Notes under the pieces: generated by a model | The model's database searches: none | Seen by the model: only the letters and a program-made list of their open reading frames with translations | What the model was told of the DNA's origin: nothing | Part shown: positions 5,293 to 51,559 of the stretch, piece by piece | Position numbering within the stretch: the stretch's first letter is position 1 | Layout: the number at the start of each line of letters is the position of its first letter | Position numbers and translations under genes: made by a program | Origin: an uncultured bacterium | Lineage (GTDB): Bacteria > Fidelibacterota > Marinisomatia > Marinisomatales > UBA1611 | Assembly (NCBI GenBank): GCA_943788175.1 | Contig: CALSPG010000002.1 | Span: forward strand, 1-64,000 | Direction: 5' to 3' | DNA length: 64,000 bases

Positions 5293-5397
5293 TTACTTTA
5301 AGCCCTCTTTCTTCATCCTCTTAGCTATTTTTTTTTCTTTGGCTGTTTTTAACGGCTTTTTCTTTTCACTTTTCTTTGCATCTTTTCCTTTTCCCAT
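5293..5397 (-). CDS. Small Lys-rich protein (34 aa)
   Basis: AAAGGAGA RBS before MGKGKDAKKSEKKKPLKTAKEKK. Confidence 0.6.
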   Translation of the reverse strand: MGKGKDAKKSEKKKPLKTAKEKKIAKRMKKEGLK

Positions 5398-5413
5398 TAT
5401 ATCTCCTTTTGGT

Positions 5414-16876: not shown

Positions 16877-16941
16877 TTGCAGCTTACTTTTTCAAAATCC
16901 CAAGGGGCGACGAATAAAACGATGAATAAATATTTTTTCAT
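16873..16941 (-). repeat. Signal-peptide element, orphan stub (MKKYLFIVLFVAPWDFEKVSCN*)
   Basis: Nucleotide match to the element consensus; its stop overlaps the TTG start of the next gene. Confidence 0.85.
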
Positions 16942-17061
16942 TCATTCTGCCTCATCATTATTACTACTACGAAAAAAAATCTGAACTATTAGCTTGAATG
17001 GGATGTACCCCACAGCAATCACTATGACACCTATGAAGATTATAAATTCTTTAGTTTCCAT
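16942..17061 (-). CDS. Small single-TM protein (39 aa) ending NDEAE
   Basis: Manual translation METKEFIIFIGVIVIAVGYIPFKLIVQIFFRSSNNDEAE*. Confidence 0.45.
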   Translation of the reverse strand: METKEFIIFIGVIVIAVGYIPFKLIVQIFFRSSNNDEAE

Positions 17062-22100: not shown

Positions 22101-22429
22101 TTCTGAGGTTCAGATCCCGCTCCCATGCTTTGAGGCCAAGAATGCTCACAATTCATGTTAAAAGCATTTGTTTGCGGTCTAGGGTCTTGAGCGGGGTCGA
22201 TAAAAATTGTATAATTAGTATAAATGCCTTTAAGTGAGTTATCATCTTCTAAATCGATTATTGAATACATTACATCTCTTGCATTGTTGTATCCTAAAGT
22301 TGATGATGACTTATAATTTAAAATAACATAGTCTAAAAGTGGCTGACCTGCAGTACCAACTCCGATAATAATTTCTTGTGAAGAAGATATTGAGCAAAAG
22401 AATAAAATGCCGGATAAATAATTCTTCAT
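19169..22429 (-). CDS. Modular secreted protein: endonuclease I + beta-helix + leucine-rich repeats + T9SS/FlgD-Ig tail
   Basis: NCEHSWPQS..SDLHHL..NSSRGN..FEPRE.VKGNIAR (EndA-like); GDGSEQNPFATIQ; IPPEIGNLINL repeats; CTD. Confidence 0.85.
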   Translation of the reverse strand: MKNYLSGILFFCSISSSQEIIIGVGTAGQPLLDYVILNYKSSSTLGYNNARDVMYSIIDLEDDNSLKGIYTNYTIFIDPAQDPRPQTNAFNMNCEHSWPQSMGAGSEPQKSDLHHLYPARGNVNSSRGNKHFADIDDNDTDKWWRFDYYETSIPNEFIDEFSEVDNGNGVFEPREDVKGNIARSMFYFYTMYNDVADTNFFNIQKETLYDWHRQDPVDANELNRTLAIAGYQENKPNPYVVDSTLVRRIWFEEESKSTWYISIDGSDNTGDGSEQNPFATIQNGVDSANDNDTIFVSAGLYFENINWSMANNIRLIGSHMDSTVIDGEGVGKVIDNSDETAHPIEISNLTIQNGYSTGKGGGISLKMVGDILLKNIKVDNNQARNGAGIYIEGEGSASSIPTTLNIENSVISNNSATTYGGGISLSGAIISSIMKNVTVVNNSAVDGGGGISAGSMGDYAIVVNSIFWNNQPTNADGMIFPYYSNIDIPIGINNLYTDPLFVEGDTNFNLSDSSPCIDAGTNFLVVDLSNQMLPGPVPDTLVNLSPDSYIGIKPDMGAFESAFISVESCIANDGTVGVELWGECYSIDETTNITLSGNPVSGILDLGVIPAQIGNLINLDTLSCQFCGFSGSIPPEIGNLINLKSLSIVFSGLTGSIPSEIGNLSNLESLTLHSNQLTGAIPPEIGNLTSLSILHLNENSLSGELPSEIYNLINLRGGHSSGAGPLGWTNGLDVSRNLLSGEISSGIGNLINVVSMNFSQNQFTGSIPAEIGNLNNLWGLALDSNQLSGLIPIELWDQLNYIEILDLSFNQFSGGIPENICSMSIPGVTFDISNNQLCPPYPSCIEDHIGEQDTLACIPSWNFSISEPSIQISGDDNDWNPGESLQIEMDFCNNSDIAHGWYPGLVLEADTNLVSISNDHFWFFGMPGNSCNMVPFDILADSTINFDTLVTFIAYAEALNCQNQPEYCIFGDTLTFQVSLLGEDVLSAQELDMPMAFSLHQNYPNPFNPITLLRYDLPNDGLVNITIYDMMGRIVKTLVNGSQTAGFKTIQWNATNNKNEPVPAGLYLYTIQTEEFRQAKKMVLLK

Positions 22430-22726
22430 TTATTCTTCCTCATCATTACTTTTTCGATTATGAGTACTAAAATATTTTTTATAGTTTAATATCATCGTCT
22501 GCAATGTAGCCTTGCTCGCTAGTTGACAACAGTTTTTTTCTGTAAGATTTTATGCTTAAAGTATTTAGTTCTTCTGCAATAACTTTACTTTAAAAGTCGT
22601 TCATAAATAATTAAAGTAATACTTTAGATAAATATTTTTAAATAATATAATATTAAATCATAAGGATTTATAATTATTCCTGTTCGTACCTGTCTAAATT
22701 ATATATCAATATAATTCTAAGATTCA

Positions 22727-24386: not shown

Positions 24387-24542
24387 TTGTTTTTTTGTAA
24401 TTAGCACTTACAACATACAAAGACTTTTTCAATAATGTTATTAAGCAGTGGTTACTTCTTGCGAATTCATAGCATTATAGACACATAGCTATGATAGTAA
24501 TTTTTGTCATTTATTCTTTTTATGTGCTTAGAAACGCAATAA

Positions 24543-24735
24543 CTATTTTAGACGCACCATTTTTCTGGTATGTCTAAACTCTCCTGCTTGGATGGTTTAT
24601 TAATATAACCCTATAGAAACGAGCTCATTTCTTTCATTGGTGACAAAACATTAAACTGAGTTAAATCTTTAGGGTTAAGAGCCATTTACAAGCGTTTGAA
24701 CTATACTTCCCATCATAACGTAGACTGTTAATTAC
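24543..24735 (-). pseudogene. Decayed relic of the T9SS/FlgD-Ig C-terminal tail
   Basis: gcaccatttttctggtatgtctaaactctcctgcttggat...gagccatttacaagcgtttgaactat...cccatcat aligns by eye with intact tails; no open frame seen. Confidence 0.8.
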
Positions 24736-26618: not shown

Positions 26619-26681
26619 GATATATAATTTTTAACTAATTTAATCAATGGATTTAAAAATATATTTTTAAAAAAACTTTAA

Positions 26682-26720
26682 TTAACCAACGAACAAGATG
26701 ATGAATAGATATTTCTTCAT
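26682..26720 (-). repeat. Signal-peptide element, orphan stub (MKKYLFIILFVG*)
   Basis: Immediately follows the NDEEE* stop. Confidence 0.85.
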
Positions 26721-26906
26721 TTATTCTTCCTCATCATTAGCCTCTTTAGATTTAAAATTGTCACTACCAAACTCAAAATAAACTGCCAAAGAGCCTAAAG
26801 CTAAAAATATAGTAGCTGATGAAAATATCTCAGGATCTCTGTAATACTTTATAAAAGAGGTTAAAAGTAATACTGAGCCGATAGCTGATTTTTTAAATGG
26901 ATTCAT
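26721..26906 (-). CDS. Small membrane protein ending NDEEE
   Basis: Two hydrophobic segments. Confidence 0.5.
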   Translation of the reverse strand: MNPFKKSAIGSVLLLTSFIKYYRDPEIFSSATIFLALGSLAVYFEFGSDNFKSKEANDEEE

Positions 26907-29489: not shown

Positions 29490-30395
29490 TTACCGTTTTA
29501 TAAGATTATTGGAAAAGAACTGCCATATAACCTGATCAATATTTTTACCATTAACACTCAAATTAAACCAGTCGTGTCCTCCATTTATGATTTTATAATG
29601 CTCTAAATACGAAAGATCATTTAAACCAAAATATTCATAGTGATCAATATTATTATTATTACCATCTACAAAATTTTCAATATTAGTGGAATCAGATTGA
29701 TGGTGATTTGACCAATAATGCAGAGTGCTATCGACTGATAAATAATAGTCATTTATTCCATTGTAAGGCCGTGAATTATCAGCAGTTCCATTTATTAAAA
29801 AAATTCCAGTGTTTTCTTGTGGTTGACATAAGCTATCAGACTCCAGAGACATTAATCCAGATACTGGAGCTGCAGCGGAGATTTTACTACTCAAATAACA
29901 AGCTAACGAAATTGATAGATCTCCACCATTTGAATAGCCGCAAGCATATACCTTTTCTAGATCAATATTATAGTTTGAAGAAATATCATCGATTAAAAGA
30001 GATATAAAACCAATATCATCAGCGGTGCCCTTGCTTCCCTCAGTTGCGATCATTGAATTCCAATATGAAGTGCCGTTTAGGTACGAACCTTGCGGATATG
30101 CAACAATAAACCCAGCGGTATCAGCTACCTGATCCATTTTAGAGAGGTACCTCTGACCTGTAGCTGTTCCACTACCACCATGAAAATTAAATACCAACGG
30201 AACAGGAAGATTGCCACTGTAAGAGCTTGGGACATGTAATATATATTCCCTATCAAGCCCATCATGTTCGATTATGATTGCATTTTCATTGCTGACTATA
30301 CCTTTATCCAAATTGTCTTTTTCTTTACTGAATTCTAGCGAGCAAGAGACAAGAATTAATAAAGATAATATGGTTAGTATATATGCTTTTTTCAT
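29490..30395 (-). CDS. PHB-depolymerase/LpqC-like esterase, lipoprotein
   Basis: PLVFNFHG, VAYPQG, GYSNGG, GGHDW. Confidence 0.85.
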   Translation of the reverse strand: MKKAYILTILSLLILVSCSLEFSKEKDNLDKGIVSNENAIIIEHDGLDREYILHVPSSYSGNLPVPLVFNFHGGSGTATGQRYLSKMDQVADTAGFIVAYPQGSYLNGTSYWNSMIATEGSKGTADDIGFISLLIDDISSNYNIDLEKVYACGYSNGGDLSISLACYLSSKISAAAPVSGLMSLESDSLCQPQENTGIFLINGTADNSRPYNGINDYYLSVDSTLHYWSNHHQSDSTNIENFVDGNNNNIDHYEYFGLNDLSYLEHYKIINGGHDWFNLSVNGKNIDQVIWQFFSNNLIKR

Positions 30396-30540
30396 AGATA
30401 TAAAATTACATTAATCATTTAAAAATACGTATGAGTTTTTAGAGGGTAGTGTGTATTGGTTTGAATCTCAAAGTCTTAATAGGAAAGTCTTTAGTAAAAA
30501 AAATTAATATACCAAAGAATGTCATCGAGATTATATCTTA

Positions 30541-30578
30541 AACCCGATCCAATGAAACGATTAATAGATTTTTTTCAT
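30541..30578 (-). repeat. Signal-peptide element, degenerate stub overlapping a CTD stop (TAATG)
   Basis: + strand ccaatgaaacgattaatagatttttttcatta. Confidence 0.75.
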
Positions 30579-32461
30579 TACTTTAACAGCACCATCTTCT
30601 TAGTCTGTCTAAACTCACCTGCTTGAATTGTATAAAGATATAGACCTGCAGATACTGGTTCATTTCTATAATTTGTGGCATTCCACTGGACTGATTTAAA
30701 TCCTGCGGTTTGAGAGCTATTTACAAGTGTTTTAACTATCCTGCCCATCATATCATAAATGGTAATATTTACTAAACCGTGTTCTGGCAGGTCATACCTT
30801 AATGATGTGATTGGATTGAATGGATTTGGGTGGTTTTGATATAACTTAAAAACTGTTGGATTTATTTCATTCTCATTACCAAGAGTTGAAGCACTGATAC
30901 AATCAAATAAAGAGCTGTAAATGAAATCAGAGTAATTCACATCATCTATTATGAACCCACACCCACTAATTAAGCTGCAATGGTTATTTCTCCAGCCATA
31001 TCCTAATACCATTTCACATAATCCAAAATCTACATTAGTTAAATCATTCATACTTCCAGGATTTTCACAAATAAACAGCTCGTCTTCGTAAAAATAATCA
31101 GCGTAGCACCCACCACAATAATTATCATAACATTCAGCATTATCACTTGACGTACAATTTGAAACTGTACAAGGTCCAACAAAACAGCTAACAGGTTGTT
31201 CACACTCATTAGATAGAAAAATTGAGTTTATATTTACAGCACTACATTCCACACATTGAACTGTGTCTCCTTCAATTTCCACAAACCTGTCTAAAAAGTA
31301 TTCAAAGTTTGGGATATTATTCTGATTTGAAACATTGTAAAGAAACTCTCCATTTTCAGATTCTAAATGATACATGCCACAATCATCCATGCAGAAAGAA
31401 GCCTCAGTTTGTCGCAAATAACCAATGTTTGTACTAGGTGGTGGTGGCGGAGGTCCTTGTTCACAATCTAAAGTAGTAACGAACTGAGAGGCATTTTCTG
31501 GGGCAATAAGTAGCGAATCACAATAATCTTCTTCATTTTTAATAAAATAGTTAAGCCAATGTAATGATAATTTCCCAGGATTACCTTCAGACGCACCTGG
31601 CCATTCAGAAGAGCTATGACCTCCGCTACCAATTTCGTACAACATTTTAGTAGTAGTTTCAGGCGTGTTATAATATTGATCTTGACCTAAAAGTCCATCA
31701 TAACTAGGAAGTTCATTTAGCTCATTTTGTCCAGCAATAATTAAAGTAGGAACCGAGTGATCTAAAAATGCAGGTACTAAACATATACAATATTCAGAAT
31801 CAGCGCATAGATCGCAATCTTCAACAATAATCGTTGGGTTTAATGCTATTACAGCAGAAAGTGAAGAATCTAAAACAGCAGATAATTGAACAGCTCCACC
31901 GCTTAATGAATAACCCACAACAGCAAATTCATTTGTATCCAAAGCATTGTATAACTGAGAATTTGTTCTATCATTCTCCATTTTAATGGAACTTATAAGT
32001 TCTAATATTGCCTCTGCTCTATAACCATGACTATCATTTTCAGGATCATTATATTGAATTGTAACAGATACAAATCCATAAGATGTAAAGTAATAAGCCC
32101 AGTTTTCCATGGTTTCCTGATCGCCACCAAATCCAGGGCCTAGAACAATACTTCCAAGATAACCGCTGTATTCTAAGGGATAGTAAATAGTTGCATCAGC
32201 ATATAGATTACCTGATTGCATTCCATCAATCTGGGAGTAAGTGGAGACTTCATAAGGACCATAATTAATATTACCACCACCGCCGCCGCCGATTTCTTGA
32301 CAAATACTTTGTTCAGAATCCCATGTGCAATAATCAGGATACGCGGCACATTCAGTTTGAGTTAAATCACTGCATTCAGAAGAAGCGAAACCAGAAATAA
32401 AAAACAATGTTATAAGATAATATCTTGCATAGCTCAAACAAAATTTCCTTAAATAAAACAT
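30578..32461 (-). CDS. Cutinase/polyester-hydrolase-like alpha/beta-hydrolase + Cys-rich domains + T9SS/FlgD-Ig tail
   Basis: PGF, SYGFV, GYSLSGG, VPTLIIAG, GGH; poly-Pro linker; CTD. Confidence 0.75.
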   Translation of the reverse strand: MFYLRKFCLSYARYYLITLFFISGFASSECSDLTQTECAAYPDYCTWDSEQSICQEIGGGGGGNINYGPYEVSTYSQIDGMQSGNLYADATIYYPLEYSGYLGSIVLGPGFGGDQETMENWAYYFTSYGFVSVTIQYNDPENDSHGYRAEAILELISSIKMENDRTNSQLYNALDTNEFAVVGYSLSGGAVQLSAVLDSSLSAVIALNPTIIVEDCDLCADSEYCICLVPAFLDHSVPTLIIAGQNELNELPSYDGLLGQDQYYNTPETTTKMLYEIGSGGHSSSEWPGASEGNPGKLSLHWLNYFIKNEEDYCDSLLIAPENASQFVTTLDCEQGPPPPPPSTNIGYLRQTEASFCMDDCGMYHLESENGEFLYNVSNQNNIPNFEYFLDRFVEIEGDTVQCVECSAVNINSIFLSNECEQPVSCFVGPCTVSNCTSSDNAECYDNYCGGCYADYFYEDELFICENPGSMNDLTNVDFGLCEMVLGYGWRNNHCSLISGCGFIIDDVNYSDFIYSSLFDCISASTLGNENEINPTVFKLYQNHPNPFNPITSLRYDLPEHGLVNITIYDMMGRIVKTLVNSSQTAGFKSVQWNATNYRNEPVSAGLYLYTIQAGEFRQTKKMVLLK

Positions 32462-32775
32462 TTATTTTCCCTTATTAGAAAAGACTAAAACAATAATCAA
32501 TTTGATGATATTTCTATAATGAATTAATGGAATTTTTAAATATTGAGACATACGTGTTAAAGAATTGTTAGCTTAGTGAAGTTTTTTTATAATAACGGTG
32601 TTTTAAATTGTATTGTTTCTCCAAACTTTAAATGCGTATCCACACTCCTCTGCATGCATAAAACCAAATATCGTAAGAGGTAAAAATAAAAGTATTCTAT
32701 TCATTCACCAACCTACAAATAATTACGCTACGATGTTTAGAAAGCTATAAACAAAAAACCAAAATTCAAATAATC

Positions 32776-32814
32776 AACCCCTATCAATAAAACAGAGAAT
32801 AGATATTTTTTCAT
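32776..32814 (-). repeat. Signal-peptide element, orphan stub (MKKYLFSVLLIGV...)
   Basis: Matches the consensus; short ORF only. Confidence 0.85.
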
Positions 32815-32832
32815 ATTCTTTTTTAAGAAGTT

Positions 32833-33576
32833 TTAATACCTATTGAATTTGTCTATAACGAATAATAGTGATGAGTTGTGTCCCATTCTTAGACCATTAT
32901 AGTCTTTCGGTAATAATATACGCTTGCCATTAATAATTTCAACTTTTTGCGGATCTTGCTTTAAATGTTTAAAAATTCCATCTTGATGCTTTATTGTTTG
33001 CCATTGAATATATTTAACATTTGGTGCAATAGTATATTTATCCTTTTTAGGGTTCTGACAATCTTTATATTTTAAATTATTATTTATCCTTGCTAACCCT
33101 GTTGCAATCGCATGTGTTTTTATTGGGAATTCACTATCCCAACTTTCAGATAAAAGTGTTGTAATTAATCCGCCAAAACTATGACCAATAATTTCTACAG
33201 ATTTTAGACCTTCATTTGATTTTATAAATGTTTTTAACATTTTTAACATACTATCATGGATAGTTAACGGACACTCATTCCAATCATACCTATAAAACCA
33301 TATCGGTACGCCACTTTTTGATAAATTTAAAATTGGTTCAACCCATTCAAAACCTTTAGTGTCCCATTTTTCAGGATAGTAGCCGTGAACTAATATTATT
33401 CCAATTGTAGAATCAATATAATCAAAACCTTTAATTTTATGAATACCTACTGATCTATTTATTAAATATTCATCATAATTGGATTTGTCTGTAGTTAACT
33501 TTGACAATAAAATCGTTTTTTGATCATGCCCAAAACCAACCCCAACCAATAAAACGATAAATATATATTTTTTCAT
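32833..33576 (-). CDS. Secreted alpha/beta-hydrolase (copy A)
   Basis: LVHGY, GHSFGG; starts with the element. Confidence 0.8.
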   Translation of the reverse strand: MKKYIFIVLLVGVGFGHDQKTILLSKLTTDKSNYDEYLINRSVGIHKIKGFDYIDSTIGIILVHGYYPEKWDTKGFEWVEPILNLSKSGVPIWFYRYDWNECPLTIHDSMLKMLKTFIKSNEGLKSVEIIGHSFGGLITTLLSESWDSEFPIKTHAIATGLARINNNLKYKDCQNPKKDKYTIAPNVKYIQWQTIKHQDGIFKHLKQDPQKVEIINGKRILLPKDYNGLRMGHNSSLLFVIDKFNRY

Positions 33577-33632
33577 TAGTTCAAAATAACCATTCTCTTA
33601 CTTTGTGTAAACACACATGATTGAATGATATA

Positions 33633-34100
33633 TTAACAACTGTCTTTTTCCATTATATGACCTTCTGCATCATATTTTTCATTGCCAGACAGCTTACCTT
33701 TTTTTGTTTTAATTATTGAAAACCCCTCCTTTTCATAAAGATTGAATGCTCGGTGATTGTTTGATAATAATGAAACTTTAATAGGATAGTCCATTCTCTC
33801 AAGTGCAAAACGAAGTAATTTTCTACCAATACCTTTCCTTTGATAACTTGGATGAACATAAAGCCAATTAACATAATCCTTTTCAAATGCTATAAATCCA
33901 ACGACAATATCCAATTCTGCTACCCATACTTCATCATCAAATAATCCCTCATTTTCTGCACATTTTCTAAGTGGAATAAATGCGTTCAAAGGTACATTCC
34001 CTTCAAGTTCGCCAGGTCTTGACTCATCGTGAATATTGCACAGTGATCCCCAATCATCATTTCTATAAAGTCTTATTTTAATAGTTTGTAAATCCATCAA
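33633..34100 (-). CDS. GNAT N-acetyltransferase
   Basis: LYVHPSYQRKGIGRKLL, NHRAFNLYEKEGF. Confidence 0.9.
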   Translation of the reverse strand: MMDLQTIKIRLYRNDDWGSLCNIHDESRPGELEGNVPLNAFIPLRKCAENEGLFDDEVWVAELDIVVGFIAFEKDYVNWLYVHPSYQRKGIGRKLLRFALERMDYPIKVSLLSNNHRAFNLYEKEGFSIIKTKKGKLSGNEKYDAEGHIMEKDSC

Positions 34101-34128
34101 TAACTCATTTTTTCTGGAAAAACTCCCC

Positions 34129-34176
34129 TTAAACTACCCCAACCAATAGAATTATGAATAAATATTTTTTCATAAT
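34129..34176 (-). repeat. Signal-peptide element, orphan stub (MKKYLFIILLVGVV*) with 26-bp near-perfect palindrome
   Basis: attatgaataaat|attttttcataat at 34151-34176. Confidence 0.9.
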
Positions 34177-34571
34177 CTCTCCAATGTCATTAAATCCTTG
34201 TAAGTTGGTAGAGGTTCGCCATTTTCATTTGTCCATATTATTTGACTAATCATAGTTAATTCATCGCCACTTAATTCATATTCCCAATTAACTAAATCTC
34301 TTATGAATATTGAATCATTTGTTGAATTATATGAGAAATCATCTCCACTTATAGAAACTGAATCTTTACTAAAACGAATTATTAAACCTATTCTACTTTG
34401 ATGCGATAACTCTTTGGTTGAATCAAGTATATTTAACAAATCATTATCTAACATTTCTGAAATATTATACTCAGTGTATAAATAGCCCCAATTACCTATA
34501 ATAGTATTTTCACTTCTTTCATCACAACTCCAAACCCCAACCAATAAAACGATGAATAGATATTTTTTCAT
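34170..34571 (-). CDS. Putative lipoprotein (lipocalin-like)
   Basis: Element-derived signal peptide with VWSC lipobox; IIGNW motif. Confidence 0.65.
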   Translation of the reverse strand: MKKYLFIVLLVGVWSCDERSENTIIGNWGYLYTEYNISEMLDNDLLNILDSTKELSHQSRIGLIIRFSKDSVSISGDDFSYNSTNDSIFIRDLVNWEYELSGDELTMISQIIWTNENGEPLPTYKDLMTLERL

Positions 34572-34589
34572 ATTTTTTTTTAAGAAGTT

Positions 34590-35334
34590 TTAATACCTAG
34601 TTAAGTTATCTATAACGAATAATAGTGATGAGTTGTGACCCACTCTTATACCATTATAGTCTTTTGGGAGTAATATACGTTTACCATTAATAATTTCAAC
34701 TTTTTGCGGATCTTGCTTTAAATGTTTAAAAATTCCATCTTGATGCTTTATTGTTGCCCATTGAATATATTTAACATTTGGTGCAATAGTATATTTATCC
34801 TTTTTAGGGTTCCGACAATCTTTATGATTTAAATTATCATTTATCCTTGCTAATCCTGTTGCAATCGCATGTGTTTTTATTGGGAATTCACTATCCCAAC
34901 TTTCAGATAAAAGCGTTGTAATTAATCCGCCAAAGCTATGACCGATAATTACTACGGATTTAAGATCTTCATTTAATTTTATCAATGTTTTTAACTTTTT
35001 TAACATACTATCATGGATAGTTAACGGACACTCATTCCAATCATACCTATAAAACCATATAGGTACGCCACTTTTTGATAAATTTAAAATTGGTTCAACC
35101 CATTCAAAACCTTTAGTGTCCCATTTTTCAGGATAGTAGCCGTGAACTAATATTATTCCAATTGTAGAATCAATATAATCAAAACCTTTAATTTTATGAA
35201 TGCCTACTGATCTATTTATTAAATATTCATCATAATTGGATTTGTTTGTAGATAACTTTGACAATAAAATCGTTTTTTTGATCATGCCCAAAACAAACCC
35301 CAACCAATAAAATGATGAATAGAGATTTTTTCAT
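34590..35334 (-). pseudogene. Secreted alpha/beta-hydrolase (copy B), +1 frameshift in an A-run after the signal peptide
   Basis: Near-identical to 32833..33576; T7 versus T6 run at about 35273-35279. Confidence 0.85.
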
Positions 35335-37787
35335 TACTTCAATAACACCATCTTCTTTGTCTGCCTGAACTCCCCTGCTTGTATCGTATATAGATATAAT
35401 CCAGCTGATAGTGGCTCATTCCTATCATTGGTGGCATTCCATTGGACTGACTTAAAACCCGCACTTTGAGAGCCATTTACAAGCGTTTTAACTGCCCTTC
35501 CAATCATATCATAGATAGTGATATTGACTAACCCATCTTCTGGTAAATCATATCGTAAAGATGTGACTGGGTTGAATGGGTTGGGGTAGTTTTGATGAAG
35601 TGTAAATAACTCAGGTATTAATTTTTCATTTATTATTGATACTTGAGTCTGATCATCTTTAATACACCTAACGCAATTTCCATCGGCACGTTCACGTGTT
35701 CCCATTTGCGCATTATTGATTCCGATGCCCATCACACGAGATGCGTCTCCATCCACAGTACTTGTACGGTATCCTGCAAATGTACCCACATTTCCTATTT
35801 GTCCACTCATACGAGATCTTGCACCAGTTAGCGTCAATTTTAATGGTGAATTAAATGCGCCATCAGAATCATTAGAACTCCAGGTTAACCTTTCTTCTTC
35901 AAATTCATTTTCTGTGGGTAATCTAAAACCTTCAGGGCAAGGATTATTAATACCGAACAAGCCCTGCCATAAACTATCGTTTGGTGGAAATCGCCAATCT
36001 GAATCCGCTAAAATAAAATATGAATGACCAGCTGTATCTGAACTTGATGTAGTATTTATGGTTGATGAAGTTCTTTCTTCATGTCCATCTGAAGACCTAC
36101 CCCATTGATATAAGCTACCAAAAGAAGCTGTATCAGTAGTTGAAGTAGCTACTTGAATAGCTCCTAAATTTCTATCCATCCATGTTCTACCAGTTATAGG
36201 ATTATATACTGTCTGTATTAAAGAATTACAATTAGTGGTGTCTTGCTCCCCTATAATTTCTTCAATGCATTCTAAGTATGGTGGACAAAATTGATTATTA
36301 CCCAATATCAAATATCCACTAAGAAAAGGATTCCAATTACAAATATCCTCAGGCATTCCAGATAATTGATTACCACCTAAAAAAAACAAATTTAGATTTG
36401 TTATATTCCCCATTGAGGTTGGAATATCTCCACTCAATTGATTGGAACTAAGAAATAAACTGCTTACATTAATTAGGTTTCCTATTTCAGAAGGGATTTC
36501 ACCAGTTAATTGATTATACTCAAGAGATAAATATGTAAGGTTTATTAGGTTCCCTATAGACGATGGAATCTCACCTGATAACTGATTTATACCTAATGAT
36601 AATGTATTTAAATTAGTTAGATTACCTATTTCTGGTGGAATCACACCTGTAATTTCATTTGTGTGTAAGTACAAGGATGTAAGATTAATTAGTTGACCAA
36701 TTTCTGGACTTATTTCACCTTCTACAACCTGCCCACTGCTCATATCTTCCAAACCTATATGAGTAGTCTCATCAATTGAATAACATCCAGATGGCATACA
36801 ACCATTACTGTGATAAATATTAACCCAATCATTACAATCTCCCCAGCCCAAATCAACTTCACCTTCATCACAAACAATTGCATCAAAAATACTTGATAAG
36901 GGGTATCTAAAAACTCCACTTGAATGTGTAGCCGCGATTATATAGTTCTCACTTATTTCAAGATCAAAAATGGTAAGGTCTGACAGTCCACTATTCAAAT
37001 CTGTCCAACTATCTCCATTGTCCATGGTATAGTACACACCAGACCCTGTTGATCCTGCAACCAATAAATCATCATTGTAACCAAACCCTCTAAAAGCAGC
37101 ACTGGCAATACCATTATCTAACAACTCCCAGTTTGCTCCAAAATTTGTTGATCTAAAAACTCCAGTACCTATCTCACCACCAGCAAAAAGAATATTACCA
37201 TAGCTTTGAATAGCTCTGAAAGTTGAAGATGAGACTCCATTCGTTAGTAAAGTCCAATTCTCTCCCCAGTCTATGCTCTTATATAAACCATTTCCATTAG
37301 TCCCAACAAAAAGTGTGTCTCCGATATTTGTCACACACCTAACATCTGTCCCTGTAAGTCCTGCGGGATCCCAATTCTCCGCCATATCAGATGAAATAGA
37401 GACACCAAATGGACCAACATGAACCAAACGTTCATTAACACTTAAAATCCCATGAGATAATAAACTCCCTAACCCATTACTCTTGGATAACCATGTCTCT
37501 CCATTATCTTCTGTTCTAAAAACACCTTGAGAAGTACAATTATATATATACAAACTGTCATGGGTAAATCCTCTTGTCGGACCACTAGAGTCGTTACCAT
37601 TGTTTGATAAAGTATAGGTCATACCTTCATCAATAGAAACATAAGCACCCGTTTCTCCTCCCGCAAAATGATATTCTCCTTTTGACCCAAGGGATTGCAT
37701 ATCAAGGTTCTCAGTTCCTGATGCCTGTTCCCATTGCCCAAAAAGTTGAGTAATAAATATTAAGATTATCGTTAAAATAAATTTCAT
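35334..37787 (-). CDS. Modular secreted protein: BNR/Asp-box propeller + LRR + FISUMP (Fib_succ_major-like) + T9SS/FlgD-Ig tail
   Basis: SxDxGxxW repeats; IPSEIGNL repeats; TWMDRNL..GSLYQW..CPEGFRLPT..VRCIKD; CTD. Confidence 0.85.
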   Translation of the reverse strand: MKFILTIILIFITQLFGQWEQASGTENLDMQSLGSKGEYHFAGGETGAYVSIDEGMTYTLSNNGNDSSGPTRGFTHDSLYIYNCTSQGVFRTEDNGETWLSKSNGLGSLLSHGILSVNERLVHVGPFGVSISSDMAENWDPAGLTGTDVRCVTNIGDTLFVGTNGNGLYKSIDWGENWTLLTNGVSSSTFRAIQSYGNILFAGGEIGTGVFRSTNFGANWELLDNGIASAAFRGFGYNDDLLVAGSTGSGVYYTMDNGDSWTDLNSGLSDLTIFDLEISENYIIAATHSSGVFRYPLSSIFDAIVCDEGEVDLGWGDCNDWVNIYHSNGCMPSGCYSIDETTHIGLEDMSSGQVVEGEISPEIGQLINLTSLYLHTNEITGVIPPEIGNLTNLNTLSLGINQLSGEIPSSIGNLINLTYLSLEYNQLTGEIPSEIGNLINVSSLFLSSNQLSGDIPTSMGNITNLNLFFLGGNQLSGMPEDICNWNPFLSGYLILGNNQFCPPYLECIEEIIGEQDTTNCNSLIQTVYNPITGRTWMDRNLGAIQVATSTTDTASFGSLYQWGRSSDGHEERTSSTINTTSSSDTAGHSYFILADSDWRFPPNDSLWQGLFGINNPCPEGFRLPTENEFEEERLTWSSNDSDGAFNSPLKLTLTGARSRMSGQIGNVGTFAGYRTSTVDGDASRVMGIGINNAQMGTRERADGNCVRCIKDDQTQVSIINEKLIPELFTLHQNYPNPFNPVTSLRYDLPEDGLVNITIYDMIGRAVKTLVNGSQSAGFKSVQWNATNDRNEPLSAGLYLYTIQAGEFRQTKKMVLLK

Positions 37788-37894
37788 ACTTTAAAGCCTC
37801 GTAGAATAGAAATTATAATGTTGGGAAAGGGGTAAAATTATTAAACTAATAGTAATTCTCTCTTCTCTAATTCTTTTTCATAATCATATCCAAA

Positions 37895-37945
37895 TCTACC
37901 CATCATATCGTAAATAGTGATATTAATTAAACCATCTTCTGGTAG
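37895..37945 (-). pseudogene. Internal fragment of the T9SS/FlgD-Ig tail (PEDGLINITIYDMMGR)
   Basis: ctacccatcatatcgtaaatagtgatattaattaaaccatcttctggta matches intact copies. Confidence 0.75.
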
Positions 37946-37966
37946 TATGAATGATAATATTTGAAT

Positions 37967-37999
37967 AAAAGAAAACCTCTCCTTTTAAAGAGAGGTTTC
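37967..37999 (-). terminator. Hairpin/terminator downstream of a tRNA 3' fragment
   Basis: aaacctctc...gagaggttt with A-run. Confidence 0.65.
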
Positions 38000-38025
38000 T
38001 GAGAAGTAACTGGTATTATTCTCGA

Positions 38026-38040
38026 GTACGCCCGACAGGA
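38026..38040 (-). repeat. Short tRNA-Arg 3' end fragment (att remnant 3)
   Basis: gtacgcccgacagga, preceded by ggtattattctc as at 40081. Confidence 0.7.
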
Positions 38041-38068
38041 ATTTTATCAAATACCTTTGGTATACTTG

Positions 38069-39808
38069 TTAAAATGAAACATTATATGTAACTGGAGAAT
38101 TACCAGTGAATTTTATTTCCCCAGTTAAGCCCTTAACCAATGCAAGTTGTGTATTATCGTCTGTCTGATAGCAATTTATTCGACACCAAATACGCGGCAT
38201 ATAGATCAGATTTTTGTAGGGATCTCCAAATCCGATACTAATTACTTTACTTAATGGAAGTTTATTAGCAGTCCACATAGTTAAGGCTTTTGAGTTATTT
38301 AGATTTAATGTCCCCCAAGGATTTCCAGGATTACTATAAAATGCAAAAATAAACTTATCGTATTTAGAGCTTAGATGTTCTAAGCTACTTTCTAACTCAA
38401 AATAAGATAAATCATCTCTAATATCCACCTTATACCCTCTTTTGGATAGTTCTTTCTTCATTATGCTAAAACTTTCGGTTCCTTTTTTCTCTGAAACTGA
38501 TACTATTAAAAGCCTCCTTGTTTTTGTAGTGTCTAATGGCAATTGTTTGTTTTTATCTGCTAACAGCGTGATCGATTTTTCGGAAATCTGGTATGCATGC
38601 TTTTTATTTTCATCGAATTCTTTATCTGATACAGACTTAATTGATGAGTAGTTTCCGTTAAATAATCCAAGCTGTTTTTTCAAATTCCAAACACGGTTTA
38701 CAGCATCGTTAAGCCTTTCCATTGGTATTTCTTCTCTTAAGATACGCGCCTCAAGGGAATCAATAATTTCAATCCTTGGCCACAACAAAATGTCTGCTCC
38801 CGCCTTAAAGCATTCAATTTCGGTCTCTAATTGGTTTTCATAGTAACCTGCTATACCGGCCATGTCAAGTGCATCTGATACCACAACTCCCTTAAATCCC
38901 ATTTCTTTTTTCAGCAGGTTAGTCATTAGTTCCTTAGACAAAGTAGCAGGCAAATATTCTCCATTTAGTTTTTCTTTCTGATAGGCAGGAAATGTAATAT
39001 GACCAGCCATTATTACGGCTACTCCATTATCTATAAGGGTTTGAAATACTTTGCCATTTTTTTGTTTCCAGTTATGATAGCTAATCTGTAAGGTAGATGT
39101 ACTAAAATGCTGATTAATAAAATCTGTGCCATCGCCTGGAAAATGTTTTGCCGTTGCTGCTACTCCGTTTTTTTGCATTGCTTTTACTTGATTTGGTAAT
39201 AAGCGAGTAGCAATGTTTTCATCGTCACTTATGGCTCTTACGTTGGTAAGAAAATTACCCGGGTTATTGTTCAGGTCTGCTACTGGATGCAGCAACCAGT
39301 TGATTCCAATTCCTCTTGCTTCCTTAGATATAATGTTACCCATTGAATATGCCGCTTCCTCAGAATTGGTTGCCCCTACTCCCATCTCACTTGTAGTTCG
39401 TGTAAAGCCCTTTATCTCTGAGCCAATTCCCGCCTCAAAATCTTCTACATAAAGCATAGGATATTTTGATGCCTTACTGAATTGCTGAACAGTGTTTTGG
39501 TAATGTTTCCATAAAGAATCACTTGGTGCCTCCGGTTTCATGTTCCAATTTGCCAAAAAAACAGAACCTATTGGATATCTGTTTACCAGCGTATATATCG
39601 ATCCATTGCCATGTTTGGCAATCAGGCCTTTGTCATATTTGAAACAAACAAGCTGTCCTATTTTTTCGCGTATAGATAATTTTTCCCAACCTCTATCATT
39701 ATCGAAAGCCTTTTCTTTATCCATAACTGATTCCTTATTTTCTTTTTTTGTTCCACAACACACTATAAATAAACATATAGTAAGTAGAATAATGTTCCTT
39801 TTAATCAT
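38069..39808 (-). CDS. GH3 beta-N-acetylhexosaminidase-like glycosidase
   Basis: EKIGQL, KHFPGDG, MAGH, GFKGVVVSDALDM. Confidence 0.9.
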   Translation of the reverse strand: MIKRNIILLTICLFIVCCGTKKENKESVMDKEKAFDNDRGWEKLSIREKIGQLVCFKYDKGLIAKHGNGSIYTLVNRYPIGSVFLANWNMKPEAPSDSLWKHYQNTVQQFSKASKYPMLYVEDFEAGIGSEIKGFTRTTSEMGVGATNSEEAAYSMGNIISKEARGIGINWLLHPVADLNNNPGNFLTNVRAISDDENIATRLLPNQVKAMQKNGVAATAKHFPGDGTDFINQHFSTSTLQISYHNWKQKNGKVFQTLIDNGVAVIMAGHITFPAYQKEKLNGEYLPATLSKELMTNLLKKEMGFKGVVVSDALDMAGIAGYYENQLETEIECFKAGADILLWPRIEIIDSLEARILREEIPMERLNDAVNRVWNLKKQLGLFNGNYSSIKSVSDKEFDENKKHAYQISEKSITLLADKNKQLPLDTTKTRRLLIVSVSEKKGTESFSIMKKELSKRGYKVDIRDDLSYFELESSLEHLSSKYDKFIFAFYSNPGNPWGTLNLNNSKALTMWTANKLPLSKVISIGFGDPYKNLIYMPRIWCRINCYQTDDNTQLALVKGLTGEIKFTGNSPVTYNVSF

Positions 39809-40095: not shown

Positions 40096-40137
40096 TACGC
40101 CCTACAAGTTTCTAACTTGTATGCTTATGCTCCGGAG
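40096..40137 (-). repeat. Degenerate tRNA-Arg(CCG) 3' fragment (att site 2)
   Basis: tacgccctacaagtttctaacttgtatgcttatgctccggag aligns with 51439-51480. Confidence 0.8.
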
Positions 40138-40167
40138 TTATAATACTAATCGCTGTAAGTGCAATTA

Positions 40168-41275
40168 TTATGCGCGATAGTCACTAACCATACTTACCGT
40201 GTCCCGGAAAGCAGTGTCCCGAATTGATAATTTAGTAGAATATTGATATTGTTTTGCTAATAAAGGAAAATCTTGAGCAACCCTTTTAAGATTCATATTA
40301 GCATAAACTTCAGTGGTAGTTACAGAACTATGCCCCATGATAAGCTTCAAATCATAGATAGGCATGCCCTTAATTAAGCTTCTAACGGCAAATGTGTGTC
40401 TAAGCGAGTGAAAGTGCTTCTTTGAATTAATACCGATCGATTTAAGAGCATTTTTTAAACATCTTTGATAAATGATTGCCTTGATCTTTAATCGTAGAGC
40501 CATACCCTTCAATTAACCACTCTTTATAATTGATAAATATTTTTCTTAAAGAACTGTCCAATTCAATATTTCTACTAGATCCTCCTTTAGACTCCTCGCT
40601 TATATCTATCCAGTCTCCTTCAATGACAGATATAAAAGGTTCTCTTAAACGCATACCAGTTTCAAGGTATAGTCTAAATACATCCTTATAAAATGGATCT
40701 AGCCAATCAAGAGCCATAATTTCTTCAAATTCTTTCTCCGTGATGTATATTGGATCTTTCTTTCGGACTTTTAATTGTTCTATAAAAGGTATTTTATTTA
40801 TTCGGTCATTTTTCAATAAATAACCAAACATAGTTTTTATAGTACGGAGATGAATATTGATGGTATTAATACTTAAACCTTTAGATTTTAAAAAATCTAT
40901 AAATCCTATTATATTGCTAGTTACAATTTCATTAACTGCTTTATTTCCACTTAGATATTTTATTAAATAGTCTGTACCTTGTTTGTTTAAAGTGAGTGTA
41001 TTTTTAGTAGTATTTCTACTAGCTAACCACTCATCTGAGGCTTCTTTTAACGTATATTTTTTTACTTTGATCTTGATTTGATTTGATAGCCAGGGAAAAG
41101 AGAATGCTACACCTGATTTAATACCATCCTCAACTGCGTTAACTTCTGTTAGTCTTTCATAGGCAACCGCCATAGATGAGGTTCTTAGAGGTATTAACTT
41201 TTCTTTTTCATCGCCTTTTATTTGCCACCTTACTCGTGCATAAAACTTTCCTTTTCGATCTCTTAACCTAGCCAT
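40168..41275 (-). pseudogene. Phage-type tyrosine integrase split by a 1-nt frameshift near 40450
   Basis: SINTINIHLRTIK, TGMRLRE, then HSLRHTFA, MGHSSVTTTEVY in the next frame. Confidence 0.9.
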
Positions 41276-44367: not shown

Positions 44368-45146
44368 TTTGTCATCAAATTTCCATTGATGTCATATTCA
44401 AGCCTATATACAGTTTCAGAACCTTTTCTTATGAAGCTAAGTTGTTTATTTCCATTTTTATAAAATTGATCAAGCTGTGTATGATTGAAATCATAGGACA
44501 TTAACATTTCAATTTCTTTTTCTCCTGTTTCATAATAACTTATTGTTTTAAAATATTTTTGGTCTGGTATAGTATGAGCCGTGATCTCTGTTACCCCATA
44601 TTCGGTAATCTTTTTAAGCATACCGCTTTCATACCAATCATAATGTAATCCAATATTTTCATATTCTCTTTCATCATTAGATGGTTTTTTTAATAATATT
44701 TCACCACCATATTTACTAGGCTCACCGTTATCATGAAACTCAAGCTTAACATAATAATAAGAAGCTCTAGAAAACTGAGGATCATTTTTCTCAAATTTTT
44801 TAGAGAAGATGTAATTTCCATGGTTTGACTTTATTTCATGCGGTTTATAAACTATCCAAGATTCATCTGTCGGCTTTCCATTAATGTAATCACCTCTAAT
44901 TAAAAGTTTATTTCCTTCTAAATAAAAAAGATATTCACCATTTCTAACATTATCATTGTATCTGGTTTTTGACCTTAAATCACCATTAGAGTAATAAGTT
45001 TTAACACCTACTAAAACCTCATCAAATCCCTTTCCATCATAATAATTAATTTTTTTTGGTGTACCATCCTCCCATCTTGTAATGATCTTTTCTGTTTGCC
45101 CAAAACAAACTCCGACCAATAAAACGATTAATAGATATTTTTTCAT
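44364..45146 (-). CDS. Secreted MORN-variant/YwqK-like repeat protein
   Basis: YYSNG, WYESG, YYETG, FYKNG repeats; element-derived signal peptide. Confidence 0.75.
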   Translation of the reverse strand: MKKYLLIVLLVGVCFGQTEKIITRWEDGTPKKINYYDGKGFDEVLVGVKTYYSNGDLRSKTRYNDNVRNGEYLFYLEGNKLLIRGDYINGKPTDESWIVYKPHEIKSNHGNYIFSKKFEKNDPQFSRASYYYVKLEFHDNGEPSKYGGEILLKKPSNDEREYENIGLHYDWYESGMLKKITEYGVTEITAHTIPDQKYFKTISYYETGEKEIEMLMSYDFNHTQLDQFYKNGNKQLSFIRKGSETVYRLEYDINGNLMTN

Positions 45147-46465
45147 TATCCTATCTTTGCACTTTTAGTTCTATTACACGATTCACACAGTAATTGAATA
45201 TTTCTAACAGTGTCTGCTCCACCTTTAGAATGAGGAATTATATGATCATATTCTAATTTTTCATTAATTCCACATTCAATACATTTACCTTCATCTCTTC
45301 TCCAAACTTCTCTCTGCACTGTTTTAGGTATTGGTTTTCTTTTAGATTGATTGTCACTTTTTTTTCTTTCATCTGCAAAAACGCAAATGTAGTTATCTTC
45401 AATATTTGTTATTTCATGCCCAGGATAATAAAAAACATTTTTAGGATCATAATTTTTAGGATCAAGTTGATGCCTCAAAGCATCTTTTTTTAATATTCCA
45501 GTCTCATCATACCTTTCGTCGTATTCAATAATTTTTTTAATATAATGATTAAGATCTTTGTAATGATAAATATCATAATATTCATTTTCTGCATTGTAAT
45601 ATTCAGTAGAAAGGGAAATTCCTTGTTCTAAGATTTCGAAATATCTGATTATACTGTCATGGATTTCATCTTTATCTGATAAATCTAGAGTACTTATTTT
45701 TGACCAAGATTTTTTCATACATTTAGTACATTGGATTTCTATTCCTGTGCCAGAAGAATTAGTATCTAGTAAATTAAAATATTCCGTGTTGCATTTTTTG
45801 CAATTATCAAATTTATAATTTTCTTGGATTAGACTTTTTATTTTTGGCTCAAGTATTTCAATCTCTGTTATAAATGCTTTCATTTTAGAAGAATAACTAA
45901 AAACGATATCATTGCTTTTTAACCAATTATCATAATATTCTTTTCTCTCCTCCAAAATATTTTTATAATAAAGAAGATATTCATTATTTTTCTCATCCTG
46001 ATCAAATTTTTGTTTCGGTTTACTAAAAGGATTAATCCTTTCAAAATCATTATGATTAAAGACAGCAAGTAAAATAAACCAAATAGATGAAAAAATTAGT
46101 ACCCCAGCAATCCTAAACGATTTTAATTGAATACCTATGCTAGTGTCAAATGCCCCTTCGCCAGAATAATACCAAAAATTTAAATATATAATACTAAAGC
46201 AAGCTGAAAGAGCTAAAAACAAAAATGTTATATAAAAAGAAGTATTAAGACTATGATACTTGCTTACAACCTTATCTTCACTATCACCATTACTAATAGA
46301 GTTAAATTTTTCTATAATTATATATGACAAAAATATAATTAATGCTGGAATCGATATCGAGATTAAACCAGAAAGAAACCAGTCTGATATATTAGCTCCT
46401 TTAAACCATCCATAATATGGATACATTAAAAAGATTATTATAATAATAATTAAAGCTTCTCTCAT
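45146..46465 (-). CDS. Membrane-anchored protein with Zn-ribbon and C-terminal HNH endonuclease
   Basis: VWRRDEGKCIECG..LEYDHIIPHSKGG..NIQLLCESCNRTK; 4 N-terminal TMs. Confidence 0.85.
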   Translation of the reverse strand: MREALIIIIIIFLMYPYYGWFKGANISDWFLSGLISISIPALIIFLSYIIIEKFNSISNGDSEDKVVSKYHSLNTSFYITFLFLALSACFSIIYLNFWYYSGEGAFDTSIGIQLKSFRIAGVLIFSSIWFILLAVFNHNDFERINPFSKPKQKFDQDEKNNEYLLYYKNILEERKEYYDNWLKSNDIVFSYSSKMKAFITEIEILEPKIKSLIQENYKFDNCKKCNTEYFNLLDTNSSGTGIEIQCTKCMKKSWSKISTLDLSDKDEIHDSIIRYFEILEQGISLSTEYYNAENEYYDIYHYKDLNHYIKKIIEYDERYDETGILKKDALRHQLDPKNYDPKNVFYYPGHEITNIEDNYICVFADERKKSDNQSKRKPIPKTVQREVWRRDEGKCIECGINEKLEYDHIIPHSKGGADTVRNIQLLCESCNRTKSAKIG

Positions 46466-46627
46466 ATCGAATCATTTAATTTATATAATCGTTACAGGAA
46501 TTGGTTGCACATTGCTGAGATTATTAGACCACTTTTATATAAACAAATCTACAAAAAATTACCAAATAATGCGTGAATGGCTTATTTTAACAAGCCCCAC
46601 CCCCATAAAAGCTATTTCAGTTGCATT

Positions 46628-46650
46628 TATTAAGTTGAAAAATTGGAATT
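46628..46650. repeat. 23-bp direct repeat, copy 1
   Basis: tattaagttgaaaaattggaatt, identical at 51281-51303. Confidence 0.85.
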
Positions 46651-46660
46651 GATTTAAAAC

Positions 46661-46685
46661 AAAAAACCCCACTACTGTGGGGCTT
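46661..46685 (-). terminator. Intrinsic terminator of the giant secreted protein gene
   Basis: aaaaaaccccac..gtgggg. Confidence 0.7.
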
Positions 46686-51162: not shown

Positions 51163-51280
51163 TGATATAGTTCCTCTTGTGTTGAAAAAATATAAACAAA
51201 TTAAATAAAATATGTTAGGATTCGATTTAACGGCTTATTATACAAATATCCCACTCCCTCTCACTTATATCAATTTCATA

Positions 51281-51303
51281 TATTAAGTTGAAAAATTGGA
51301 ATT
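51281..51303. repeat. 23-bp direct repeat, copy 2
   Basis: Identical to 46628-46650. Confidence 0.85.
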
Positions 51304-51437
51304 ACATCAAAATAAATCGTGTCCCGGAAATTAGTGTCCCGTTTTAAGTGTTTTATGATAATTGGTGATAATGTATGATAAAAGAAAACCAACGATTTTA
51401 TAGAGGGCTTGTCGTTAATAAATGGCGTTTATTCTCA

Positions 51438-51485
51438 GTGCGCCCGACAGGATTCGAACCTGTGACCTTATGCTCCGGAGGCATA
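51438..51485 (-). tRNA. 3' 48-nt fragment of tRNA-Arg(CCG) (att site 1; not a complete tRNA)
   Basis: Minus strand TATGC-CTCCGGA-GCATA anticodon arm, ACAGG-TTCGAAT-CCTGT T-arm, acceptor 3' strand; no D-arm or 5' acceptor strand upstream. Confidence 0.85.
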
Positions 51486-51559
51486 GGCTTACATCTATTA
51501 AATGACTAATTTGATTTGATAGATTTCAAAACATCTTTCCTTAATTTATATCAAGCTAT

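Follow-up and report, generated by a model that had tools for sequence, protein, structure and literature searches.

Surface and secreted proteins from families with a conserved 5' leader and conserved 3' ends are known to undergo non-allelic homologous recombination, as in the bab/hop genes of Helicobacter and the vlp/vsa genes of Mycoplasma. The additive genomic island linked to a tRNA gene is likewise an established concept. Bacteria of the SAR406 (Marinimicrobia) lineage are abundant in the ocean, mostly uncultured and thought to live on polymers, and the enzymes they secrete define their niche. Modular arrangements have also been described for the orphan modules of Rhs and contact-dependent inhibition (CDI) toxins and for the sequential displacement of type VI secretion system (T6SS) effectors (PMC3967940, PMC5361080). 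Here we analyse 64,000 nucleotides (nt) of DNA from an uncultured SAR406 bacterium (Candidatus Neomarinimicrobiota, Marinisomatales; contig CALSPG010000002.1, positions 1 to 64,000), referred to below as the window, in which a gene for a predicted secreted hydrolase occurs twice. Both copies begin with the same short repeat encoding part of a signal peptide, the leader element, and both end next to a further copy of it. Our analysis suggests that these leader sequences serve as recombination handles that reshuffle secreted enzymes.

Results

A duplicated hydrolase unit with both ends inside leader elements

The duplicated unit and its borders are made up of the following features, from upstream to downstream.

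35287-35339, minus strand: leader E5 at the start of hydrolase B (E 2.5e-15); the stop codon of the upstream leucine-rich repeat (LRR)/C-terminal domain (CTD) gene runs into the ATG of E5 (35334) as TAATG
34590-35334, minus strand: hydrolase copy B, frameshifted by an extra A at about 35273-35279; its body lies in the +1 frame as an open reading frame (ORF) at 34590-35303
34572-34589, minus strand: 18-nt spacer after hydrolase B, within the duplicated unit
34526-34575, minus strand: leader E4 of the lipoprotein gene, which runs MKKYLFIVLLVGVWSC
32833-33576, minus strand: hydrolase copy A, intact, 247 amino acids (aa), predicted secreted alpha/beta serine hydrolase with GHSFGG, led by E2 (33530-33581)
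32815-32832, minus strand: 18-nt spacer after hydrolase A
32772-32819, minus strand: orphan stub E1, 25 codons followed by a stop (E 5.9e-11)

Pairwise alignment, counted per column, bears out the sequence-only reading of this locus that the two hydrolase copies are near-identical: 33 of the 681 nt of the gene body differ (95.2% identity), and the longest exact run, 140 nt, lies inside the gene. The shared tract continues through the stop codon and the 18-nt spacer (TAAAACTTCTTAAAAAAGAAT in A, ...AAAAAAAAT in B) into the start of the next element, where similarity drops to background beyond GGGG (32778 and 34535), again as first read. The element-to-element distances are indeed 762 bp for A and 763 bp for B, a difference explained by one extra A in a homopolymer of B (A7 against A6, about 35273-35279). 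The contrasting fates of the trailing elements also hold, since that of A (32814-32776) opens into a stub of 25 codons and that of B (34571) into a 133-aa lipoprotein with a WSC lipobox. The claim that similarity starts at the ATG needs qualification: the alignment does begin there, but high identity begins only in the middle of the element, with four differences in the first 22 nt. The two copies lie 1757 nt apart and are separated by two other genes.

In the leading elements, differences between A and B occur at positions 11, 13, 18 and 22, with none at 23-39; the trailing elements match throughout positions 1-18 and depart from each other at 19-21, 31 and 33. Therefore, a tract of about 98% identity spans from mid-leader to mid-leader, and both junctions fall in the same interval of about 5 nt. 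By our own arithmetic, the chance that two random breakpoints would both fall in about 40 nt of a 760-nt unit is about 0.003. The duplicated segment is bordered by direct repeats, and homology ends inside both of them. This arrangement, with a different 5' half and an identical 3' half at the leading end and the mirror image at the trailing end, resembles what a reciprocal exchange within the repeat would leave behind, but because each junction offers only 4-5 informative sites it is consistent with such an exchange rather than proof of it.

Copy B stays open for 34 codons from its ATG at 35334. The A7 run at 35273-35279, which is A6 in copy A, shifts the frame just past the signal peptide, and use of an in-frame ATG (MIKKTILL...) would yield a leaderless protein. 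This frameshift could reflect an error of sequencing, a pseudogene of recent origin or a tract prone to slippage. A metagenome protein, P0001, represents an intact B-type reading, with A6 by translation. Between A and B the synonymous divergence (dS) is 0.112 and the non-synonymous divergence (dN) 0.036, with a dN/dS of 0.32; both copies were under purifying selection during most of the time since they separated. Their identity is a mosaic, about 98% at 33555-33240, about 88% at 33239-33157 and about 85% in the final 90 nt. Of the 17 diagnostic amino-acid sites in P0001, 13 are B-type and 4, among them the C-terminal KFN, are A-type, which points to continuing exchange between A and B types in the population. 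Because most relatives share the states of B, it is A that carries derived changes.

The leader element is coding and shared at the DNA level

The element comprises the first 39-57 nt of a signal peptide; it starts with ATG, reads MKKYLFIVLLVGV and continues into CFGQ/H or WSC. Judged by eye, the layout is MKK / YLFIVLLVGV / CFG-Q or WS-C, and the element would correspond to the n- and h-region of a Sec signal peptide, with CFG-Q/H resembling a signal-peptidase I site and WSC a lipobox. AlphaFold2 gave residues 1-18 of hydrolase A a confidence (pLDDT) below 50, as is usual for leaders. Being translated in six intact genes, the element is no non-coding cassette boundary. Against 0.00 matches expected from 100 shuffles, the element has 4 matches at no more than 3 mismatches. 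A profile scan located 13 copies (E <= 4e-4) between 9.6 and 45.2 kb, with a marginal extra match at 39929-39913 (E 0.016). The minus strand carries all 13 elements with their genes, in co-oriented, mostly single-ORF units; six copies lead intact genes, one leads the frameshifted hydrolase B and six are orphan stubs.

Leader at 9650, minus strand: intact gene, PhoD-like
Leader at 10763, minus strand: intact gene, metallophosphatase
Leader at 28327, minus strand: intact gene, lamin-tail protein with CTD
Leader at 33576, minus strand: intact gene, hydrolase A
Leader at 34571, minus strand: intact gene, lipoprotein
Leader at 45146, minus strand: intact gene, MORN-repeat protein
Positions 16941, 19143, 26720, 30579, 32814 and 34173, minus strand: orphan stubs from the profile scan
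34130-34178, minus strand: orphan stub E3 (the one at 34173), 14 codons followed by a stop, 5/39 mismatches to the consensus (E 1.7e-11)
30540-30581, minus strand: decayed stub (the one at 30579) directly past the stop of the 627-aa PETase-like CTD gene (E 1.8e-6)

The six intact genes belong to unrelated families. The orphan stubs mostly lie directly 5' of genes with their own, different leaders, and they carry 5-9 mismatches in 39 nt against 0-4 in most translated copies. In stub E1 the first 18 nt are identical to E4 and are followed by 315 nt of unique non-coding DNA. Stubs also exist elsewhere, as 3 of 13 distinct copies in related loci open ORFs of no more than 55 codons.

Codons were counted in 22 distinct leader copies picked on the peptide alone, up to 3 amino-acid changes being allowed, bearing in mind that 7 of the 22 lie in loci fetched by nucleotide pattern. 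The copies share codons that are rare in the long ORFs of the window: CTA in 15/20 leaders (12% in the long ORFs), TTC in 17/21 (20.5%), ATC in 17/20 (14%), TTG in 19/20 (15%) and GGG in 15/19 (12%). Because these rare codons are common to the copies, including those of four related Neomarinimicrobiota metagenome-assembled genome (MAG) assemblies, the leaders are related by descent as DNA, beyond the likeness of their peptides. Convergent peptide-level selection was rejected as the source of their similarity, given that rare codons are shared in copies ascertained by peptide. No attC-like inverted repeat was found at the elements, since none of the 6 inverted-repeat pairs in 32400-35500 recurs there, and folds of five element contexts gave no RNA structure signal (z -1.1 to +0.9). 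Over the whole window Rfam returned 0 matches and ARAGORN 0 genes, and on these grounds a reading as non-coding RNA or tRNA was rejected.

A third repeated junction (...TAATGATGAGG[A/C]AGAAT[A/G]A ATG...) occurs at 16879-16960, 22367-22448 and 26658-26739. It sits 5' of two leader stubs and of a 1086-aa endonuclease/LRR gene, and perhaps represents a ribosome-binding or 5' region common to them.

Gene content and leaders differ among relatives

One degenerate leader-pattern scan of genome contigs yielded 7 loci with 7 distinct matches in 4 MAG assemblies. One of these loci, L001, is syntenic with the window. Its positions 3394-5831 align with window 37743-35285 at 87% (LRR/CTD gene and leader) and its positions 7966-8390 with window 30507-30082 at 95% (a 301-aa esterase). 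Between these anchors L001 has 2.1 kb, comprising a leader with a 55-codon ORF behind it and the genes of a 169-aa CTD protein and a 455-aa protein. The same interval of the window measures 4.8 kb and contains hydrolase B, the lipoprotein gene, a stub and the GNAT gene, hydrolase A, a stub, the PETase-like CTD gene and a further stub. The genes of this interval other than the hydrolases, together with the LRR gene at its upstream border, are as follows.

35334-37787, minus strand: BNR/LRR protein, 817 aa, with a type IX secretion system (T9SS) CTD (TIGR04183 4.6e-10); its CTD and E5 form an intact junction repeat
34170-34571, minus strand: lipoprotein, 133 aa, leader E4, WSC lipobox
33633-34097, minus strand: GNAT N-acetyltransferase (Acetyltransf_7, 2.6e-16), no signal peptide
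30578-32461, minus strand: PETase-like CTD gene, 627 aa (TIGR04183 2.9e-9)

The left border of the difference from L001 is the end of the leader, and 2 of the 4 synteny breakpoints lie at the 3' end of an element. No hydrolase homolog is present in any of the 7 fetched loci. The LRR orthologs themselves, at 87% nt identity, begin differently: the L001 gene (start region 3350-3410) starts with MMKKYLFIVLLVGVCFGQWEQ, which is the element leader, and the window gene (37787) with MKFILTIILIFITQLFGQWEQ. The latter opens MKFILTIILIFITQLFGQ, a leader other than the element, and homology between the orthologs sets in exactly at TTTTGGGCAA, the codons for the FGQ cleavage region. The two orthologs thus differ by a leader swap.

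Similar differences are seen at the protein level. Hydrolase relatives at 83-94% identity carry the leader, whereas those at 44-57% have unrelated signal peptides. Lipoprotein relatives with at least 81% identity carry it and those at 67% do not, whereas in P0049 the body is 31% identical to the lipoprotein and the leader is exact. The leader thus seems to spread to genes formerly without one. It is identical at 38-39 of 39 nt in MAGs whose other shared genes are at 72-87%, a figure biased by the fetching of these loci by nucleotide pattern. In a full-text literature search, the portions of text returned held no leader repeat or leader-bounded rearrangement in Marinimicrobia.

C-terminal domains and the composite junction

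Many genes of the window end in a T9SS CTD of about 300 nt, matched by the Pfam and NCBIfam models Por_Secre_tail and TIGR04183; six copies share 63-79% nt identity. The CTD stop overlaps the leader ATG (TAATG or TGATG) at 35334 in the window and in two cases each in the related loci L001 and L006, and junction alignment reveals the same layout at 30579 and at position 8865 of locus L007. Directly 5' of the ATG of hydrolase A lies a further tail.

33577-33636, minus strand: decayed CTD remnant, last 20 codons or so

This remnant is identical at 38-42 of 64 nt to 8 different CTD tails; 0-1 of 500 shuffles attain the alignment score seen, four control upstream regions score 1-6 against 12-21 for the CTD tails, and blastn alignments reach 33633. 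The GNAT stop codon abuts it. From this remnant we conclude that the true repeated unit is the junction of CTD tail and stop with ATG and leader. It also bears on the earlier expectation that homology would not run well beyond the elements. Homology does extend about 57-60 nt upstream of the ATG of A, through the decayed CTD tail, but the tail belongs to the repeated junction, and the extra homology on this side is no more than an older copy of that junction. Orphan CTD fragments with no gene attached are found at 24538-24722 and at 37893-37945, the latter 5' of the window LRR gene; these are putatively further recombination or deletion scars.

The hydrolase and its neighbours

The hydrolase family is small, with 22 matches among 407 candidates, all of metagenome or MAG origin (jgi, ena, lgn, ncbi, tara) and none functionally named. 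Naming the enzyme by sequence failed, as Pfam, NCBIfam and PDB sequence matches were weak or below cut-off, and the fold search alone was informative. An AlphaFold2 model built from 20 sequences had a pLDDT of 83.9, and Foldseek returned 479 PDB matches with it at E <= 0.001, to esterases, lipases and acyl-protein thioesterases, the top template-modelling (TM) score being about 0.5. The nucleophile elbow G-x-S-x-G is present. S133 (GHSFGG; 20/20 aligned sequences) and H233 are invariant, as are D199 and D208, the candidates for the acid residue, and we infer the catalytic triad from these positions. The protein is predicted to be an alpha/beta serine hydrolase of the esterase/lipase-like kind. 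Both hydrolases lack a Pfam match to a CTD and end in ...VIDKFNRY; because there is no CTD, they are putatively exported by Sec and are not T9SS cargo. The 133-aa lipoprotein matches no known family in Pfam or NCBIfam. The nearest relatives of the GNAT protein are two metagenome proteins at 99% and 95%, followed by one at 64% and by cyanobacterial MAG proteins at about 50%, a weak hint that this gene may be foreign in origin.

Promoter-like sites in 30000-38500 occur at shuffle level (45 against 45.6). The sole minus-strand terminator in this interval is the one after the tRNA remnant (37999-37972), and the scan found no terminator between the LRR gene and hydrolase A, a result that does not define transcription units.

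The leader array lies in a tRNA-Arg-linked island

The region appears to be a variable island that carries genes for secreted enzymes and lies 3' of a tRNA-Arg locus. Three partial 3'-end copies of tRNA-Arg(CCG) are present in the window in direct orientation, at 51441-51490, 40098-40142 and 38000-38037, and window 38040-37946 has 97% identity with the tRNA 3' end and terminator of the relative MED-G177, where the leader array starts directly after an intact tRNA-Arg(CCG). A tyrosine integrase split in two ORFs (40168-40512 and 40442-41275), the sole Phage_integrase match among the 42 ORFs scanned with Pfam, adjoins these tRNA-derived attachment (att) repeats at a distance of 5 kb from the hydrolases. 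From the tRNA 3'-end repeats, the split integrase and the comparison with MED-G177, we conclude that the leader array lies inside a tRNA-Arg-linked variable island. What look like two decayed integrative elements, of about 11.3 kb and 2.1 kb, are stacked between 51.4 and 38.0 kb, and one tRNA-Arg integrative element holds a leader-led gene (45146) plus a CTD gene. The hydrolase duplication is situated past the last att repeat (38000), and leaders, not att sites, form its boundaries.

Several further observations concern this island. In the tRNA-Arg copy at 51.4-51.5 kb the 5' half has apparently decayed, and MED-G177 is intact at the equivalent place. Just past this remnant, an ORF at 52097-52594 matches a small terminase subunit (Terminase_2, 1e-10) and may be a phage remnant. 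An 88-nt direct repeat with 72% identity (46576-46663 and 51229-51316) has one copy just 3' of the tRNA remnant and the other just 3' of a 1393-aa CTD gene; it may mark another element boundary. Inside the integrative element, positions 45146-46465 encode a 439-aa protein with membrane-like segments at its N-terminus and an HNH nuclease domain at its C-terminus, whose stop overlaps the ATG of the leader-led MORN gene. The island is rich in secreted esterases, S9 peptidases and glycosidases, and it holds two PET-hydrolase-like (dienelactone/cutinase-type) enzymes with T9SS tails, at 30578-32461 and 15449-16876. In another related locus (L004 5038-6289, TMED217), two leader-led genes lie directly 3' of tRNA-Asp(GTC), and leader arrays adjoining tRNA genes may be a general feature of the lineage.

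Discussion

We think it fairly probable that homologous recombination between the leader repeats, and between the CTD/leader repeats, duplicates, deletes, swaps and imports units, with the stubs as its scars. This explanation draws on a repeat family with shared descent at the DNA level, on breakpoints inside that repeat, on the stubs, on the leader exchanged between orthologs and on the gene content replaced in a relative; the involvement of a RecA-type agent, the order of events and the origin of the orphan stubs as scars of such events would extend it beyond these observations. A unit consisting of the 3' half of a leader, the hydrolase gene, the 18-nt spacer and the 5' half of the next leader would have been copied to a second leader position. 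It could have got there by a leader-by-leader exchange that excised a circle, followed by re-insertion into the leader of the lipoprotein gene on a sister chromosome. It could also have arisen by an unequal exchange that gave a 1.76-kb tandem duplication, followed by a leader-by-leader deletion. Import of the second copy from another strain via the same homology would be equally possible. Tandem duplication plus decay would predict a decayed lipoprotein or GNAT gene in the 315-nt stretch after stub E1, but blastn (word size 7) and tblastx returned only short chance matches there, and this identity for the stretch was rejected.

The sequence-only reading had taken the duplication as evidence that element-bounded units move as cassettes. 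That such units do get rearranged is supported by the two unit ends inside elements, by the L001 breakpoints at element 3' ends and by the orphan stubs. A dedicated mobility was not supported, as neither an attC nor a recombinase for it was found and the element is coding. The best account of the movement is general homologous recombination acting on short coding repeats that are paralogous to each other; it is a cassette-like shuffling but not an integron, because no attC-like structure and no dedicated recombinase were found.

Several points weigh against this explanation. The leader repeat is short (39-57 nt, with mismatches), and such a length is near the lower limit for efficient RecA-type exchange. 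There is a single duplication with 4-5 informative sites per junction, and the right border of the difference from L001 is intergenic, 34 nt past a decayed stub, and so not inside a leader. The frameshift of B lies in a homopolymer and is possibly a sequencing error, and the presence of both copies on one molecule rests on the assembly and is not proven. Recombination alone also leaves the cross-species identity of the leader at synonymous sites unexplained; this identity would need nucleotide-level constraint or lateral spread, for example on tRNA-Arg elements.

An assembly artefact, in which A and B are alleles of two co-occurring strains joined in one contig, seems unlikely to us. The 4.8% divergence between A and B does resemble a between-strain level, several allelic variants (P0001-P0005, 83-94% identity) occur in metagenomes, B has its homopolymer frameshift, and the relatives located are all MAGs, so that the window may be a MAG too. 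Two unique genes nevertheless lie between the copies, with unique flanks around them. The exact repeats between different leaders are about 18-20 nt, which we infer to be too short to mislead an assembler at the usual k, and the 140-nt shared stretch inside the gene would produce a single chimeric copy instead of two. If two strains had been merged, a leader-bounded unit would still occupy two positions, behind the LRR-CTD gene in one strain and behind the GNAT gene in the other.

We give similarly little credit to an ordinary duplication by another route, such as replication slippage or illegitimate recombination, which would be element-bounded only because every gene starts with an element. 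This is a single case, and the genes are packed 0-60 nt apart, so that any whole-gene copy would end near a leader. Such a copy does not readily account for two ends that both lie inside a 39-nt leader, with high identity halting mid-leader at the same position on both sides, nor for copies that are not adjacent, and independent breakpoints in L001, too, are found at the leader.

A dedicated site-specific system of an integron-like or shufflon-like kind, with the leader as recombination site and single-gene cassettes, is very improbable: although all copies form single-gene units in one orientation, both junctions fall in one small interval of the element, nucleotide conservation of the leader across species exceeds what the peptide needs, arrays adjoin tRNA genes in 3 contexts and stubs lie directly 5' of genes with their own leaders, the element has no inverted repeat or hairpin, the 42 ORFs scanned in 64 kb include no intact recombinase, the split tyrosine recombinase sits beside the tRNA-derived repeats and not beside the leader, the mismatches of the stubs (5-9/39 against 0-4) fit scars better than maintained sites, and the other homology breaks lie at the leader end, not at positions 18-23.

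Homologous recombination between leaders may be part of something larger. We speculate, and regard it as doubtful, that the leader and the preceding CTD tail form a maintained exchange platform, a 'leader trap', kept nucleotide-identical across SAR406 for the swapping of secretome genes between genomes, to which tRNA-Arg integrative elements with leader-led genes (such as that at 45146) deliver their cargo. A gene inserted behind such a leader would obtain a start codon, translational coupling and export all at once. If this were true, the leader trap would act as a functional integron analogue that needs no recombinase, serving the secretome of an ocean bacterium that is both abundant and uncultured. 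At a more general level, a DNA-conserved leader on unrelated enzymes would, if our explanation is true, provide a concrete mechanism for secretome variation between strains of streamlined genomes, and the recombination scars, the leader swap between orthologs and the complete replacement of gene content between relatives are signs that support it. For annotators, the short MKKYLF... ORFs in these genomes carry a warning that they are probably scars and not genes, and the element itself is predicted to be a natural, portable export leader.

Among known systems, integron cassettes resemble this locus in their co-oriented single-gene units between short repeats, in an array that varies among relatives and in that insertion of a circle fits the junctions. 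They differ in that no IntI, attI or attC inverted repeat was found here and the repeat is translated as part of the gene. An IntI-type recombinase with attI/Pc next to the array was not found by Pfam in 42 ORFs, a search that included no IntI-specific model. Two of three tested integron features fail, and an integron/attC reading was rejected, as there are no inverted repeats at the elements and no structure signal. The likeness to tRNA-linked islands lies in an array that adjoins tRNA-Arg(CCG) in MED-G177, in three tRNA-Arg 3'-end repeats and a broken integrase in the window and in a content that varies among relatives, but the hydrolase duplication is bounded by leaders and not by att sites. 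As in the bab/hop and vlp/vsa families, paralogs here share leader and C-terminal coding DNA, and exchange there duplicates, swaps and deletes the middle. Unlike the antigen variants of those families, the middles here are unrelated folds (alpha/beta hydrolase, LRR, metallophosphatase, PhoD-like, MORN and lamin-tail), the host is a free-living oligotroph of the sea, and empty stubs account for half of the leaders. Rhs/CDI and T6SS modules are reported (PMC3967940, PMC5361080) to be similar in that a short conserved coding block acts as the homology handle, that displaced partial copies pile up downstream and that recombination between handle copies changes the expressed module. In those systems the handle reportedly lies where a C-terminal toxin domain is joined on, and each module pairs a toxin with its immunity protein, whereas here the handle is an N-terminal signal peptide together with the previous CTD, and the cargo consists of ordinary secreted enzymes.

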